The position numbers and the translations under genes are program-made. 64,000 nucleotides of DNA from Candidatus Zhuqueibacterota bacterium. Its GTDB lineage: Bacteria; Electryoneota; RPQS01. Shown one piece after another: positions 2 to 12,556 of this stretch. The first letter of the stretch is position 1; every line of letters begins with the position of its first letter. The stretch is taken from contig JACRMR010000002.1 of NCBI GenBank assembly GCA_016214895.1, positions 1 to 64,000 on the forward strand, read 5' to 3'. The notes beneath the pieces are model-generated. The model had not been told where the DNA came from and did no database searches. It was given only the letters and a program-made list of their open reading frames with translations.

Positions 2-127
2 ATTATGTCAGCGGTGGAACAGCACAATGACAACCCAACCCCGTTTCGCTGGGCCGCAACCGCCGACGACATCATTACCAAGTTCCGTCACGCCCGCGCC
101 GCCCTCGATAAGTTGCAATCTGAGTGA
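2..127 (+). mobile_element. 3' fragment of a transposase gene (IS630/Tc1-mariner-like C-terminus); the 5' part lies outside the window
   Basis: Frame 2 reads ...NDNPTPFRWAATADDIITKF... and stops at 125-127. This resembles, from memory, the conserved C-terminal 'N-P-(K/T)-P-F-x-W-T-x-x-A-d-x-I-l' segment of IS630-family transposases. No database check was possible. Confidence 0.45.
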
Positions 128-381
128 GACACTACACTAGTTGGACCCAATGCGGTTCCGAAAATCCTGGTAGTGCTGTTAGTTCCTGACGATGAAGTGA
201 AGTGGCTTGACCACTCTGAGGATCGACTAGAATTGCGCCGATGTGCGTATTGGATTAATCTTGAGTCGCTTGGTCCAACAACAAACCAGGCGAGCGTAAC
301 GATTCGTGTTCCTCGCTCGCAACAATTCACGGCATCTACCCTTAAGGGTCTCTTGGTGACAATCGGAAGCACAGGGGAACT

Positions 382-1545
382 ATGAGCCCGATTGGAATTG
401 ACGACAGTCTCCTGTCTGCTGTCTCTGTCGATAGCCTGCAACTCTACCTTGCGAGCAGACATTGGCGTGAGCGCGAGAGCATTGTGGGGAAGGCTTCTCT
501 CTGGACGAGGGACGACGGCGATGAAGAAGTCCTTGTACCGCAAAACAACCAGTTACGTGACTTTGTCCGGCGGATTTCTGATCTGCTGCAAATCCTCGAA
601 TATGATGAAGCTCGGCCTTCGTACCTGATCCTGAAGGACAGCGTCCTTGCCTGGTTTGACTGCTGGAGAATTCGTCGCGATGAGGAGGACACAAAGAACG
701 GGACAATCTCGTTTGAGGATGGAGCGCGACTCATCGCTGGTATGCGCGACTTGCTATCTGAGTCTACTAGGGGTTTTGTTCAGTCGTTGCAGCTGGACCC
801 GGAACCCTCCCGGCCGAAGTTACGGAGCATCCTTCGTCGATTCAGATTGGGTCAGACGGAAATGGGGAGCTTTGTCGCCACTTTGGTGACGAATGTCAAG
901 CAAGACTCGCCATCAGACCCAATATCTGGCCTCCAAGTGCCCGGTACTCCCGTTCAACGCTTGGTTTTGTACCGTCTTAATAAGACCATTTTTGCTGCCG
1001 TTCGTGCTGCGGAGACATCAAGAGTCGAGCAGTTCCGCGACTCGATTTTGGACGGGGTTACGCCTCGTGTCTGCCGCACACTGGCTGCAATCGGGGCGGA
1101 ACACGATTTGTCATCGTCCGTGGAGATTTCGTTTCAGTATTCTATGGGCCACGTGGTCACAACTCCTTTGGAAGCACGCGTTGCTATTTCTCCCGAGGCG
1201 CGAGAAATGTTGTCGGAGGCTGCGGAGTACTTGACTCATTCAGTCTTGCCCGCGACCGATGAGAAGTTTGCCGTTCGAGGACCAGTTGTTGTTCTCCAGC
1301 GTGATCCCAATGCATCGGAGGGAACCGTTTATGTGTTTTCAGACGTGGAAGGTAGAAATCGGAGAATCCGAGTTGAGCTGAAGGCCAGCGCTTACAGGCA
1401 AGCGATTCACGCGCATGAGCAAAATCTTGAGGTATCATGTCGCGGTACGCTTGTACGTGAAGGTCGTGCCTACCGAATAGACGATCCCAAATCGCTCACA
1501 ATTATGGATTCGGGAGACCAGATCGACCTCGAACTGCCCTCTTAG
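382..1545 (+). CDS. hypothetical protein (387 aa), no recognisable domain; a possible D...ExK nuclease-like motif near the C-terminus (SDVEG...VELK)
   Basis: Long ORF with AGGGGA ribosome-binding site 6 nt upstream. It sits in a lower-GC segment than the rest of the window. It is not shadowed by a better ORF. Confidence 0.6.
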   Translation: MSPIGIDDSLLSAVSVDSLQLYLASRHWRERESIVGKASLWTRDDGDEEVLVPQNNQLRDFVRRISDLLQILEYDEARPSYLILKDSVLAWFDCWRIRRDEEDTKNGTISFEDGARLIAGMRDLLSESTRGFVQSLQLDPEPSRPKLRSILRRFRLGQTEMGSFVATLVTNVKQDSPSDPISGLQVPGTPVQRLVLYRLNKTIFAAVRAAETSRVEQFRDSILDGVTPRVCRTLAAIGAEHDLSSSVEISFQYSMGHVVTTPLEARVAISPEAREMLSEAAEYLTHSVLPATDEKFAVRGPVVVLQRDPNASEGTVYVFSDVEGRNRRIRVELKASAYRQAIHAHEQNLEVSCRGTLVREGRAYRIDDPKSLTIMDSGDQIDLELPS

Positions 1546-1638
1546 CCTGCAGGTTGGTCGCGGCTCTTCCACGCGGCGCACCTGTCGGCATGTGTTCTGC
1601 TCGGCGAAAACTAAGAAGTACTGTCAGGAGAACTTGGC

Positions 1639-2130
1639 GTGAAAGAGAATTTGGCTGTGATCATAGTCGGCAATCCAAACTCGGGTAAGAGTCATACATG
1701 GAATACACTATTCGGAGCAGTCGTAAAGACAGGCTCACAGTTACGTCGACTGTGCTTGACTGTGACAACGAATGTTGAGGTCTTCCTAGTCAGCGGATCG
1801 CCAGAAGAACGCGAGACTTACGTTGGAAAGATTATCGGCGAGAAAGCTCCTCGTATTGTCTTATGCTCAATGCAGTATCGCCAAGACGCAGTTCAGACCA
1901 TCCAGTATTTTGTAGAACACGACTATTTCCTATTTGTTCATTGGCTGAACCCTGGATTTCGAGATGTAATCAGATACGAAGATCGGTTGAATATGGTCTC
2001 GCTTATTCTTGCCGAAGAGTCGTTACTTGGTGTACGTAATGGCTCCACTGATTCGATTTCGCGAGTGCAGGAGATAAAGGACTTCATCTACGGGTGGGCG
2101 TTTAGTAGAGGTCTCGTTCGCACAACTTGA
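1639..2130 (+). CDS. small P-loop NTPase/kinase-like protein (163 aa)
   Basis: GTG start preceded by SD AGGAG (1626-1630). Walker A motif GNPNSGKS in IIVGNPNSGKSHTWNTLFG. It is 93 nt downstream of the 387-aa gene on the same strand, so probably co-transcribed. Confidence 0.65.
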   Translation: MKENLAVIIVGNPNSGKSHTWNTLFGAVVKTGSQLRRLCLTVTTNVEVFLVSGSPEERETYVGKIIGEKAPRIVLCSMQYRQDAVQTIQYFVEHDYFLFVHWLNPGFRDVIRYEDRLNMVSLILAEESLLGVRNGSTDSISRVQEIKDFIYGWAFSRGLVRTT

Positions 2131-2150
2131 CGTTTACCGCCGAGGTAGGT

Positions 2151-2175
2151 CCCCCGACCTGCCCGGAATCGGGGG
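2151..2175 (+). terminator. GC hairpin (CCCCCGA...TCGGGGG) 20 nt after the stop of the P-loop gene; possible terminator, weak U-tract
   Basis: 7-bp perfect inverted repeat read directly. The downstream sequence is T/C-rich rather than pure T. Confidence 0.3.
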
Positions 2176-2180
2176 TATTC

Positions 2181-2450
2181 CTCTTCCTCGCGGCGGCACT
2201 TGTCTCAAAGTGCCCCGCTCGGGCAAATGCGTGAACGTGGATGGGTTTCGCCGAGCGGGTCGGATGATGACATCCAACGCCGCGAAGTCGAATACGAATC
2301 ACGGTCGCGGCGGCACTTGTCTCCAAGTGCCCCGCTCGGGAAAGTGCGTGCACGTGGACGGGTTTCGCCGAGCGGGTCGGATGAAGGCATCCAACGCCGC
2401 GATTCTCCTTCCTCGCGGCGGCACATGTCTTCATGTGCCCCCTTCGGCAA
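2181..2450. repeat. tandem array (2.3 copies; periods 117 and 108 bp) of a structured repetitive element with two conserved hairpins
   Basis: Units begin at 2189, 2306 and 2414 with cgcggcggcac. Hairpin A: GGCACTTG-tctc-CAAGTGCC (2195-2214, 2312-2331, 2420-2439). Hairpin B: CCCGCTCGG-(~27 nt)-CCGAGCGGG (2214-2259, 2331-2376). Copy 3 carries T>A in the left arm and A>T in the right arm, preserving pairing. Confidence 0.75.
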
Positions 2451-3715: not shown

Positions 3716-4066
3716 ATGCAAGTCCTCACCACCGACGAGAAAGACGTCATCGTGATTCATCTGCACGGCCGCATCACGGGTGTGCAAGACACGGATGATT
3801 TTCACAACGTGATCGAAACCATCCTCACGAGCGACTTCAAGAACGCCGTGCTGGATATCAAAGGCGTGGACTGGATGAATTCCACCGGCCTCGCGCTGCT
3901 GGTGCGCGCCTATACGCAACTGCACGAAGCCGGATGTCGGATGCACATCGCCGGAGCCTCGCCGGCCGTGCAGACCGTCCTGCACACCACCAAGTTGGAC
4001 AGCGTCTTCGGCCTCTTCCCCAACGTCGCCGAAGCCGCCGCGGATCTGCGCCAAACCGTGGCTTAG
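3716..4066 (+). CDS. STAS-domain anti-sigma-factor antagonist (SpoIIAA-like), 116 aa
   Basis: Size and pattern (IHLHGRITGVQDTDDFHNVI..., GVDWMNSTGLALLVRAY) are typical of STAS/SpoIIAA proteins. The stop is 2 nt before the next start. Confidence 0.8.
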   Translation: MQVLTTDEKDVIVIHLHGRITGVQDTDDFHNVIETILTSDFKNAVLDIKGVDWMNSTGLALLVRAYTQLHEAGCRMHIAGASPAVQTVLHTTKLDSVFGLFPNVAEAAADLRQTVA

Positions 4067-4068
4067 CC

Positions 4069-5094
4069 ATGTGGCGCGCGCGGATCTGCCCGCTGCTCAT
4101 TGTCGCCGCACTGCTGAGCGCCGCGAGTCGCGTGCCGGCCGTCGTCGAAGTGGAACCCAATGACAATAACTGGCAAGCTAACCCGGTGGTCTGTGGCGAC
4201 ACGGTCATCTGTGCCGTCCTCAGCAGCGGCACCCCTGCGGACGTCGATAATTTCCGCTTCACGGTACTTGGCCCCGACTCCGTCCTGTTGACAACCTATT
4301 CCTGCTTTGCCTCCGTCAACACCTTCCTGATTCTCTACGACAGCAACGACTCCATCGTCGCGACCGACAACGACAGCGGCCCCGGCTATTGCAGTGAGAT
4401 CCGCTATCGCACGCCCGGCCCCGCAACCTATGTCGCCCGCGTCATGCGCACCCTGCCGACCGTCGATTCCGTGTACTCCCTGACGATCTCGTGCCTGAAT
4501 CCGCCCCCGCAGGAATACGATCTTTGCACCACCCCGCGGATTATCGAAAGCCTGCCTTATTATAATGAAGGCTCGACCTACGGCGCGACCCATCAGGCCG
4601 GCACGGCGGCGCCCGACGTCTTCTATCGCTTTCACAATTACACCGTCGCCAACTACGATATCACGGTTTGCGCTTCGACGTGGGACGCGCGCGTGGGCCT
4701 GCTCTCCTACTGCCACGGCGGCTGGGGTGACGACGAGTCCGTCGGCTGCGGTCTTGGCGCGGCGCTCACAACCTACGGCCTTCCCATCGGAGATTACCTG
4801 ATCATCGTCGAAGGCGTCGCCGCGAATCAACAGGGAGATTTCTCTCTCGAAGTCGCCGCCGACCTGCCGCCTTGCCCCGCCCCCGATGCCGTCGTGATGT
4901 GGCAAGTCGGAGGGTATCCCTTCCTCGAATGGCCCGATCTGGTTGGACCCCAGTCCTTCGCGGTCTGGAACTCCGCGTCACCGGACGGCCCCTGGGAGCA
5001 TCTCGGACTCTCACCGTTCTCCTACTATCTCGATTCCCTCGGCTACAATCCCAGCCGCCGATTCTACCGCGTCACCTCAATCTGTCCGTGGTGA
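4069..5094 (+). CDS. secreted Cys-rich protein with a pre-peptidase-C-terminal (PPC)-like domain; ends in the unusual C-terminus ...RRFYRVTSICPW
   Basis: Signal peptide MWRARICPLLIVAALLSAASRVPA. EPND motif. The PPC-like block (DVFYRFHNYTVANYDITVCAS...GDYLIIVEGV...GDFSLEV) is paralogous to domains in 40573-43143 and 46882-49551. The internal start at 4069 is chosen over the ORF-track start at 3934, which overlaps the STAS gene. Confidence 0.7.
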   Translation: MWRARICPLLIVAALLSAASRVPAVVEVEPNDNNWQANPVVCGDTVICAVLSSGTPADVDNFRFTVLGPDSVLLTTYSCFASVNTFLILYDSNDSIVATDNDSGPGYCSEIRYRTPGPATYVARVMRTLPTVDSVYSLTISCLNPPPQEYDLCTTPRIIESLPYYNEGSTYGATHQAGTAAPDVFYRFHNYTVANYDITVCASTWDARVGLLSYCHGGWGDDESVGCGLGAALTTYGLPIGDYLIIVEGVAANQQGDFSLEVAADLPPCPAPDAVVMWQVGGYPFLEWPDLVGPQSFAVWNSASPDGPWEHLGLSPFSYYLDSLGYNPSRRFYRVTSICPW

Positions 5095-5388: not shown

Positions 5389-5422
5389 TTGACAGCTTGC
5401 GTACACAACCTGAAGATGGAGT
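5389..5422 (+). promoter_or_regulatory. possible promoter (-35 TTGACA at 5389-5394) upstream of 5433
   Basis: Perfect -35 hexamer. The -10 is weak (GAAGAT). Confidence 0.3.
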
Positions 5423-5432
5423 GATATACCCC

Positions 5433-7160
5433 ATGCGAATGATGTATGTTTTGGCTCTTGCCCTTTGTATGAGTTGGACCCTGGCGATCGCGCTGCCGCC
5501 GGCAGTCCAGTGGGAGAAGCAGTACGGACCGGGAGCGGCTGGTGAATTCGGTCAAGCGGTGATCCAGACCGCTGACGGCGGTTATGCCGTCGCCGGTGTG
5601 ACGGACTTCCTCGATCTGTTCGGGGATTTCATGCTGCTCCGACTCGACGCCAACGGCGACACCCTCTGGACTCGCATCTATGTCGATTTGGCCGGTGAAC
5701 AGTCGCCGCGGGCGCTGTTCCAAAAACCGGATAACGGATTTGTGATCGGCGGCCAGCATAACGACTTCATGTCCGGCGACGCCGATTATCGTTTGATCGA
5801 GACCGATGCCGCCGGAAACCTCGTCGGTACGCATACCTACGCGGATCCCAATTACGACCTATGCGCCGACATGATCCCGACCGCTGATGGCGGCGTCATG
5901 TTCGTCGGCACGCGCGATGTGTCCGGTGTCATGCAGGCGAACGTGCAGAAGGTCGATAATGCGTGGAATCTCGAGTGGGATTCCACCTACGCCTTCTTTC
6001 CCACCGGGTCGAATGGTGCCGCCGATATTCGCCAAACCGGTGACGGGGGCTACGCATTGGCGGGAACCTTTCAGAACGTGGATTCGACGAAGATCTTCCT
6101 CGCGAAGATCAACGCACTCGGGTTTACGCAGTGGGCGGTTCTGCTCGATCCCTACGGGATGGAATGGGGATACTGCCTCGAATTGGCTGGAAGCGGGTTC
6201 GTCGTCGGCGGCATGGCCGACACCGGCGGCCCGGACCTCTATGACGCGTGTCTGATCGCGACCGATGGCGCCGGAACCCTGCTCTGGAGTGGTACTTACG
6301 GTGGAGCCGACGTTGATTGGGCCCGCGATCTCAGTGCCACGCCTGACGGCGGGTTGGTAGCGACCGGTTACAATGTCGAGGGCTTCGACGATTATACCTA
6401 CATCTTCAAGACGGATGGCAGCGGTATTGAATACTGGTCCGTACTCCTCGGTGCCGCATCGTCCGATGAGGGCCGATCCGTTCGTCCGACCGCTGACGGA
6501 GGCTACGTGGCGACCGGACTCCGTGCGCGTCCCGATGCCGAGGACCAGAACATCTACGTCGTGAAACTCATCGCTGACGTGCCGCTGCCGGTGGAACTGC
6601 TCGCCTTCGATGCTCGGATCGTCGGTGATGGCATCGAGCTCTCCTTCACCACGGCGGCTGAGACCAACACGGCCTATTTCGAGATTCTGCGATCCGCCGG
6701 CGCTGACTTCGCCGCGATCGCCAGACTCGAAGGCGCTGGGAATTCGACCACGGAGCGGCACTACTCTTTCGCCGATCAGCGCGTGAATCCGGGGACGACC
6801 TATCGCTATTTCCTCGCCGACATCGATGCCGACGGAAACCGCACTGAGCATCGCGATCGTATGCAGACCGTGACCTTCGGCGGAACCGCCGAGCTCCCCG
6901 CGGATTTCGCGCTGTCGGCATTTCCCAATCCGTTCAATCCCGGAACCACTGTCGAATTCGCCCTCCCGGAAGCGTTGCGAGCCACCGTGAAGGTGTTCGA
7001 TCCGGCGGGCAGACTCGTCCGCACACTGGCCGACAACGTGTTCCCCGCCGGCAGCCACCGCGTTGCTTTCGCGGCGGCCGGTCTGCCCAGCGGAATCTAT
7101 CTCGTCCGAGTCGAAGCCGGGGAATATTCCAAGATCGCGAAGCTCGTCCTGCTCAAGTAA
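5433..7160 (+). CDS. secreted repeat (beta-propeller-like, TADGGY repeats) protein with T9SS C-terminal sorting domain
   Basis: Signal peptide MRMMYVLALALCMSWTLAIA. Repeated TADGGY/TPDGG motifs. C-terminal ~80 aa (FPNPFNPGTTVEFALP...VKVFDPAGRLV...SGIYLVRVEAGEYSKIAKLVLLK) matches the T9SS type-A CTD pattern shared by five other proteins here. The ATG at 5433 is preferred to the TTG at 5397. Confidence 0.8.
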   Translation: MRMMYVLALALCMSWTLAIALPPAVQWEKQYGPGAAGEFGQAVIQTADGGYAVAGVTDFLDLFGDFMLLRLDANGDTLWTRIYVDLAGEQSPRALFQKPDNGFVIGGQHNDFMSGDADYRLIETDAAGNLVGTHTYADPNYDLCADMIPTADGGVMFVGTRDVSGVMQANVQKVDNAWNLEWDSTYAFFPTGSNGAADIRQTGDGGYALAGTFQNVDSTKIFLAKINALGFTQWAVLLDPYGMEWGYCLELAGSGFVVGGMADTGGPDLYDACLIATDGAGTLLWSGTYGGADVDWARDLSATPDGGLVATGYNVEGFDDYTYIFKTDGSGIEYWSVLLGAASSDEGRSVRPTADGGYVATGLRARPDAEDQNIYVVKLIADVPLPVELLAFDARIVGDGIELSFTTAAETNTAYFEILRSAGADFAAIARLEGAGNSTTERHYSFADQRVNPGTTYRYFLADIDADGNRTEHRDRMQTVTFGGTAELPADFALSAFPNPFNPGTTVEFALPEALRATVKVFDPAGRLVRTLADNVFPAGSHRVAFAAAGLPSGIYLVRVEAGEYSKIAKLVLLK

Positions 7161-12451: not shown

Positions 12452-12556
12452 GAGACCCCGCTCGGGGTTTGAAGTGAGACATCGGCCGTGCACTGGGGAG
12501 AATTCCCGACGGGGCACTTGGAGACAAGTGTCGCCAAGAGCATTCCGGGCGGATGA
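12452..12556 (-). repeat. dispersed copy, in inverted orientation, of the 2181-2450 repeat family, located in the icd 3' UTR
   Basis: The reverse complement gcgacacttgtctccaagtgccccgtcggga...gtgcacg...ccccgagcggggtc aligns with unit 2 (gcggcacttgtctccaagtgccccgctcggga...gtgcacg...ccgagcgggtc). The 20-nt core is identical and both hairpins are preserved. Confidence 0.65.

Follow-up and report, generated by a model that had tools for sequence, protein, structure and literature searches.

Near the start of a 64,000-nt stretch of DNA from a Candidatus Zhuqueibacterota bacterium (contig JACRMR010000002.1, positions 1 to 64,000 of the forward strand; hereafter, the window), two adjacent genes encode proteins of 387 aa and 163 aa. 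The best explanation for this locus, and one we consider probable, is that it holds a decayed copy of the phage defence candidate PDC-M02, with its first gene (A) cut down near an insertion sequence (IS) of the IS630 family and its second gene (B, encoding the 387-aa protein) intact, next to an unrelated, solitary P-loop NTPase gene encoding the 163-aa protein. The initial annotation of this DNA had instead joined the 387-aa protein and the P-loop NTPase into a two-gene defence or toxin-antitoxin module. Because these two genes do not co-occur elsewhere, we do not regard the module as real. The two open reading frames (ORFs) themselves are real and correspond exactly to the proteins of locus tags HZB60_00085 and HZB60_00090 in a metagenome-assembled genome of candidate division KSB1. 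A 70-aa ORF at 173-385, overlooked in the initial annotation, is what remains of the true partner gene of B. The features of the locus are as follows (HMM, hidden Markov model; TRF, Tandem Repeats Finder):

2-127, + strand: final 41 codons of a transposase gene of the IS630 family, which runs off the start of the window (tblastn of the tail)
128-139, strand not applicable: inferred right IS end and junction with the cut-down A gene (sequence reading and A alignment)
140-385, + strand: 3' remnant of PDC-M02A, about 80 of about 170 codons (PADLOC profiles and our own A HMM)
382-1545, + strand: PDC-M02B gene, full length, ATG start, 387 aa
1639-2130, + strand: solitary minimal P-loop NTPase gene, GTG start, 163 aa
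2160-2177, + strand: terminator-like hairpin followed by a T-rich run, 3' of the P-loop gene (consensus scan, weak evidence)
2188-2450, strand not applicable: 117-bp tandem repeat, structured, at the right-hand margin of the low-GC island and outside both gene systems (TRF)

The 387-aa protein had been described as unannotatable. It was found to match 37 PADLOC profiles for PDC-M02B, the best with an E-value of 3.7e-76 and with residues 6-376 aligned to profile positions 6-375 of 380, and on these matches it is a full-length member of the PDC-M02B family. An exhaustive HMMER search retrieved 5,525 representatives of the family at 50% identity (1,849 of them at E <= 1e-30), nearly all of them 375-395 aa in length, and a scan with one peptide pattern located relatives in at least 520 of 185,579 species genomes. 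A fold search of a viral library additionally returned one full-length, uncharacterised relative from Leptospira phage LE1. Searches of Pfam, NCBIfam, and PHROGs yielded nothing informative for B, and the profiles of the A, B, and P-loop families retrieved no relatives when compared to all Protein Data Bank chains. The D...ExK arrangement suggested near the C-terminus of the 387-aa protein could not be upheld, as the lysine of its VELK stretch is variable in the family and the region is modelled as an oligonucleotide/oligosaccharide-binding (OB) fold. PDC systems are a set of 145 "phage defence candidates" drawn from genes embedded in BREX, DISARM, and type I restriction-modification (R-M) loci (Payne et al., bioRxiv 10.1101/2024.01.29.577857), and PDC-M02 is listed among them as cassette CAS_00021, FAM_01850>>FAM_00842, with 894 RefSeq occurrences (supplementary table, bioRxiv 10.1101/2024.01.29.577857). 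A literature search for PDC-M02 retrieved this supplementary table entry only and no paper text.

The 70-aa ORF at 173-385 (+) shares an ATGA (382-385) with B, its stop overlapping the start of B. It matches 24 PDC-M02A profiles (best E-value 2.1e-20), though only over profile positions 99-163 of 167, which is the C-terminal third, and our own A HMM aligns the remnant to positions 111-191 of 194. The conserved core of A reads VDDDSxD ... PKxDxQLKCT ... KNYxDLR, a D...(D/E)xQxK nuclease motif; VDDDSxD and PKxDxQLK occur in 24 full-length homologues, and DUF4365 matches all 25 of the aligned A sequences. Judging from these motif and domain matches, intact A is a stand-alone DUF4365 nuclease of about 170 aa and of the PD-(D/E)xK type. 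The copy in the window is without VDDDSxD, PKxDxQLKCT, and KNYxDLR. Its alignment begins at VPKILVVLLVP, at about nt 155, and similarity to A homologues is lost upstream of about nt 140-155, so that the 5' ~55-60% of the gene is missing, every catalytic motif included. Neither a second A fragment nor the missing 5' half was found within the 64-kb window, and no Shine-Dalgarno (SD) sequence precedes the GTG at 173, the sole in-frame start of the remnant. Because the A nuclease core is gone, the PDC-M02 copy in the window is most likely non-functional. The locus resembles the catalogued PDC-M02 cassette in the full-length profile match of B, the upstream match to A, the gene order, the strand, and the stop/start overlap, but the cassette is incomplete, with A reduced to its C-terminal ~80 residues.

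What is left of A borders directly on the 3' end of a transposase gene of the IS630 family. In tblastn, the 41-aa tail encoded at the start of the window matched the C-terminal ends of transposases annotated as IS630-family on 305 plasmids, with 44-54% identity and a best E-value of 5e-5, and no second copy of the IS end was detected within the 64-kb window. IS630 elements target TA, and the CTAG at 137-140 has a central TA compatible with targeting of this type. We infer that the IS630-family element caused the truncation of A. Both an insertion and an IS-adjacent deletion fit, and these are indistinguishable because the left IS end lies outside the window. Window positions 112-2334, with the junction of A remnant and IS included, were reproduced with zero mismatches by an independent Logan assembly. 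The Logan contig breaks on the left at window position 112, which is expected because the IS is a repeated element, and on the right inside the tandem repeat, at position 2334.

To describe the usual surroundings of B, 80 B-encoding loci were taken from 80 species genomes out of the 520 that matched. An A-family ORF was found directly upstream of B and on the same strand in 76 of these 80 genomes, which come from many phyla, and one of the four exceptions lies at a contig edge; A is conserved beside B in 96% of loci. The order of A followed by B, with tightly coupled or overlapping genes, is seen in the window, across the 80-locus survey, in genes 1-2 of a prophage, and on a metagenome contig (L003) where a full-length 211-aa A with a Pfam DUF4365 match is encoded directly upstream of B. 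An intact A-B pair was also found on a Methylobacterium bullatum plasmid, NZ_LR743513, and two longer family members (P0124 and P0237) have a partial DUF4365 fused to B. The prophage in question is Mycobacterium phage prophi102-2 (L175), in which an intact A-B pair at 398-2160, with a 4-bp overlap, forms genes 1-2, right at the end of this prophage of M. abscessus. The pair is annotated there merely as hypothetical proteins, and the phage offers a convenient cultivable source.

The window is not alone in having kept B beside a broken A, as at least 7 of the 79 informative loci have a B whose A neighbour is decayed or missing. The A gene carries an in-frame stop in L035 and a frameshift in L078, is present only as fragments in L050 and L055, and is absent from L031, L042, and L052. 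Loss of the nuclease gene with retention of B is recurrent. The reverse pattern, a frameshifted B beside an intact A, was observed at one locus (L032); since loci were sampled for having B, decay in this direction is under-represented. The repeated loss of A with B kept fits A being a costly or toxic component.

The small protein carries the Walker A motif GNPNSGKS at residues 11-18, as the initial annotation had stated, and G11, G16, and K17 are invariant in 53 sequences. Its GTG start is consistent with the N-termini of 52 homologues. The family to which it belongs comprises 519 clusters of 161-170 aa with 53-70% identity, from Bacteroidota, Planctomycetota, and KSB1, and a copy with 45% identity is carried by a cyanobacterial plasmid. 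Twenty-eight residues are invariant in the family, including those of GxxxxGK, FLVSGSPEE, LCSxQY, and WLNPG. Pfam, NCBIfam, PHROGs, and PADLOC searches gave nothing beyond Walker A matches for this family. TRAFAC GTPases (MMR_HSR1, Era, EngA) were considered and rejected, as the matches span only residues 2-34, around the Walker A motif, and NKxD and DxxG are not conserved. The predicted structure is a generic minimal P-loop fold without an effector or sensor domain, and the structures that match it best are minimal P-loop proteins designed de novo. Unlike minimal P-loop kinases and members of the kinase-GTPase class (adenylate kinase, APS kinase, hCINAP), the 163-aa protein has no lid, no substrate-binding domain, and neither NKxD nor DxxG.

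Relatives of the P-loop family were detected by HMM within 6 kb of B at none of the 80 B loci, and A or B at none of 89 P-loop family loci. No recurrent neighbour and no conserved flanking DNA (cassette or miniature inverted-repeat transposable element (MITE) ends) accompany the P-loop gene beyond near-identical loci. Within the window, the gene is separated from B by a 93-nt spacer, has its own SD sequence, and has a GC content at third codon positions (GC3) of 0.47 as opposed to 0.56 for B. The P-loop gene is not part of PDC-M02; it is solitary and independent, moves horizontally, and shares the low-GC island with B by chance. A single defence or toxin-antitoxin cassette made up of the 387-aa and 163-aa proteins is accordingly extremely improbable: the genes are adjacent, on the same strand, within the same low-GC island, and both preceded by SD-like sequences, but the reciprocal surveys did not recover the pair once, B has another partner at nearly every locus, the spacer and the differing GC3 set the two genes apart, and the neighbours of the P-loop gene differ at every locus. 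What survives of the proposed defence-like cassette is that the 387-aa gene belongs to a candidate defence family; the pairing with the P-loop gene does not.

Members of the P-loop family (1639-2130 in the window; loci L004-L009 and L090-L173) are always solitary and stand several times beside known defence systems, and the gene is possibly an unrecognised island gene. Its 163-aa product in the window could act in defence, on its own or as an accessory, with the gene inserting next to varied immune systems, a reading we consider distinctly unlikely. Homologues adjoin a Gabija-like pair of OLD/TOPRIM and UvrD genes, a type III R-M system, and M78/DUF4411 with MmeI, and among 149 neighbouring ORFs there are OLD/ABC-type ATPases (AriA/GajA/PtuA-like) three to four times, integrases three times, and HNH nucleases three times, as raw counts. 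The gene is also solitary, found in hypervariable contexts, and 45-70% identical across phyla. Many neighbours are nevertheless housekeeping genes, such as PurA, GidA, GuaA, and PhoU, and the family is nearly absent from phages and plasmids. The PADLOC match confined to Walker A and the generic fold described above weigh in the same direction.

With regard to PDC-M02 itself, the predicted structure of B consists of a small N-terminal alpha-beta3-alpha domain, a central helical/beta region, and a C-terminal OB fold, and these modelled folds suggest a nucleic-acid sensor that would control the A nuclease. The N-terminal domain yielded a fold match to 1whz, which we take to be HicA/YcfA-like. A relation to HicA at the sequence level was rejected, since a comparison by hhalign of the B profile to E. 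coli HicA gave a probability of 0.2%, and a HicA-like toxin reading of B was likewise rejected, as no conserved histidine is present in B residues 1-90. Compared to the OB-fold proteins SSB, RPA, and PriB, which bind single-stranded DNA (ssDNA), B is only 8-15% identical and has no Pfam SSB match, and its predicted OB fold forms a single domain within a larger protein.

A further comparison is with SPARDA, in which a short prokaryotic Argonaute is accompanied by a DUF4365/DREN-APAZ nuclease (PMC10810196, PMC12205087). The SPARDA DUF4365 has been shown by experiment to be a non-specific DNase effector that acts after target recognition by Argonaute, with Q62 and K64 in its active site (PMC10810196). 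PDC-M02 shares with SPARDA the DUF4365 PD-(D/E)xK nuclease domain as its predicted effector, the QxK active site, a separate, adjacently encoded partner that is predicted to sense nucleic acid, and a predicted output of non-specific DNA degradation. It differs in having no Argonaute (MID/PIWI) or APAZ, in its stand-alone nuclease of ~170 aa, and in its unrelated partner of ~380 aa with an OB fold. Membership of PDC-M02 in SPARDA or the short prokaryotic Argonaute systems was considered and rejected, as it has no short Argonaute (MID-PIWI) with an APAZ partner, and comparison to the solved SPARDA chains produced no sequence-level match. A DUF4365/Mrr-like nuclease domain is also found in Divona, an anti-phage protein from Vibrio integron-cassette defence (bioRxiv 10.1101/2024.07.02.601686). 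PDC-M02A has a DUF4365-type domain as well, but Divona fuses its domains, crr6 among them, into one protein and lacks a B-like partner.

By analogy with SPARDA, whose effector has the same nuclease domain, the simplest model has B sensing nucleic acid and controlling A, with an abortive-infection or toxin-antitoxin-like outcome. Either the OB fold or the N-terminal domain of B would bind nucleic acid derived from a phage; B would then release or activate the A nuclease, and A would degrade DNA non-specifically and so abort the infection. The sensor role of B and the effector role of A are both proposed. Two bolder readings are that PDC-M02 is an immune system in which a SPARDA-type DUF4365 nuclease is placed under a new OB-fold nucleic-acid sensor that replaces Argonaute, and that the P-loop family is a new stand-alone defence or accessory gene. 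We think these readings rather unlikely. If they held, the window would be no more than a degraded example of an OB-fold-sensor system and a further instance of a P-loop defence gene.

Two other accounts of PDC-M02 were weighed against a decayed defence candidate. PDC-M02 may mainly serve mobile elements as a toxin-antitoxin or addiction module, A being the toxin and B its inhibitor, in which case the toxin would have been lost here and a harmless antitoxin left behind. Its compact, overlapping two-gene operon on plasmids and prophages would suit such a module, and the loci with B beside a decayed or absent A follow the safe order of decay expected if A is toxic. Nevertheless, the sampling on B and the frameshifted B beside an intact A at L032 both temper the latter point, and B is much bigger than antitoxins usually are, with no DNA-binding repressor domain recognisable in it. 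We therefore hold this account to be fairly unlikely, while noting that toxin-antitoxin and abortive-infection roles are not mutually exclusive. We give less credence still to the orphan B having been kept under selection without A for a cellular role of its own, such as binding of ssDNA or RNA. In favour of such a role, the B ORF in the window is intact, matches its profiles over the full length, retains every family-invariant residue, and has its own SD-like AGGGGA. B without A is almost never seen, however, and the window B deviates at 8 of 49 highly conserved positions, where the family median is 3 and the maximum 9, including four consecutive changes in the B signature motif (GVSANLC to GVTPRVC). 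Relaxed constraint would be compatible with these changes, but equally high counts are found at loci where A is intact, so that the window B remains within their range. The reading of the locus as a decayed PDC-M02 copy beside an unrelated P-loop gene is the one we retain.

The first ~2.7 kb of the window is foreign by composition. The GC content there is 0.46-0.53 as compared to about 0.61 elsewhere, and GC3 is 0.45-0.56 in the island genes versus 0.72-0.80 in neighbouring genes. This foreign GC3, together with the abutting IS630-family transposase tail, bears out the description of the region as a mobile-looking island. The earlier remark that most genes of the window lack an SD sequence also agrees with our rough count, in which an SD core was present at the longest-ORF start for only ~7 of 37 long ORFs. 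The further statement that both genes of interest have clear SD sequences holds for the P-loop gene, with a canonical GGAG 8 nt before its start, and less so for B, where the AGGGGA is weaker. In a consensus scan, the number of terminator-like sites in the region was not above the shuffled expectation, and a sigma-70 promoter scan of the region found no site, organisms with other promoter types not being covered by that scan. Rfam and tRNA scans at the island edge found no relevant integration site or RNA element.

The window itself is of little weight: the two genes of the proposed cassette are neighbours by chance, and the actual system there is a candidate already catalogued, present in a broken copy. 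Of wider use is that PDC-M02 is now described by domain, as a stand-alone DUF4365 nuclease with a ~380-aa partner having a predicted OB fold. With this description, a widespread candidate can be tested directly for being a nuclease effector under a non-Argonaute sensor, and the recurrent retention of B without A suggests that A is the component that carries the cost. The work also flags a large, conserved family of minimal P-loop proteins that has no Pfam, NCBIfam, or PADLOC model and that occurs in variable, partly defence-rich neighbourhoods.

Several minor observations were made in and beyond the island. The non-coding sequence at 2131-2460, directly after the P-loop gene, contains a 117-bp unit repeated ~2.3 times, with several GC-rich hairpins per copy. 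TRF reports a period of 117, 1.8 copies, and 92% matches, and a third, degenerate copy reaches position 2450. The repeat has an RNA fold z-score of -7.1 and no Rfam matches. A partial copy of the unit is present at 12503-12535 (-). Because the Logan contig ends inside the tandem repeat, the 117-bp unit is probably a genome-wide repeat, similar to repetitive extragenic palindromic (REP) or MITE sequences. Further along, ARAGORN calls a 93-nt tRNA-Val(gac) at 5542-5634 (+), inside the ORF at 5397-7160; this call was not confirmed by the Rfam tRNA model and is probably a false positive. The ORFs at 5397-7160 (+) and 3934-5094 (+) encode proteins that look secreted when their translations are read by eye, and the product of the former ends in what we take, from our own reading of the translation and no domain search, to be a type IX secretion system (T9SS)-type C-terminal sorting domain. 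These secreted-looking ORFs and the low number of SD sequences jointly suggest biology like that of the Fibrobacteres-Chlorobi-Bacteroidetes (FCB) group, in keeping with KSB1.
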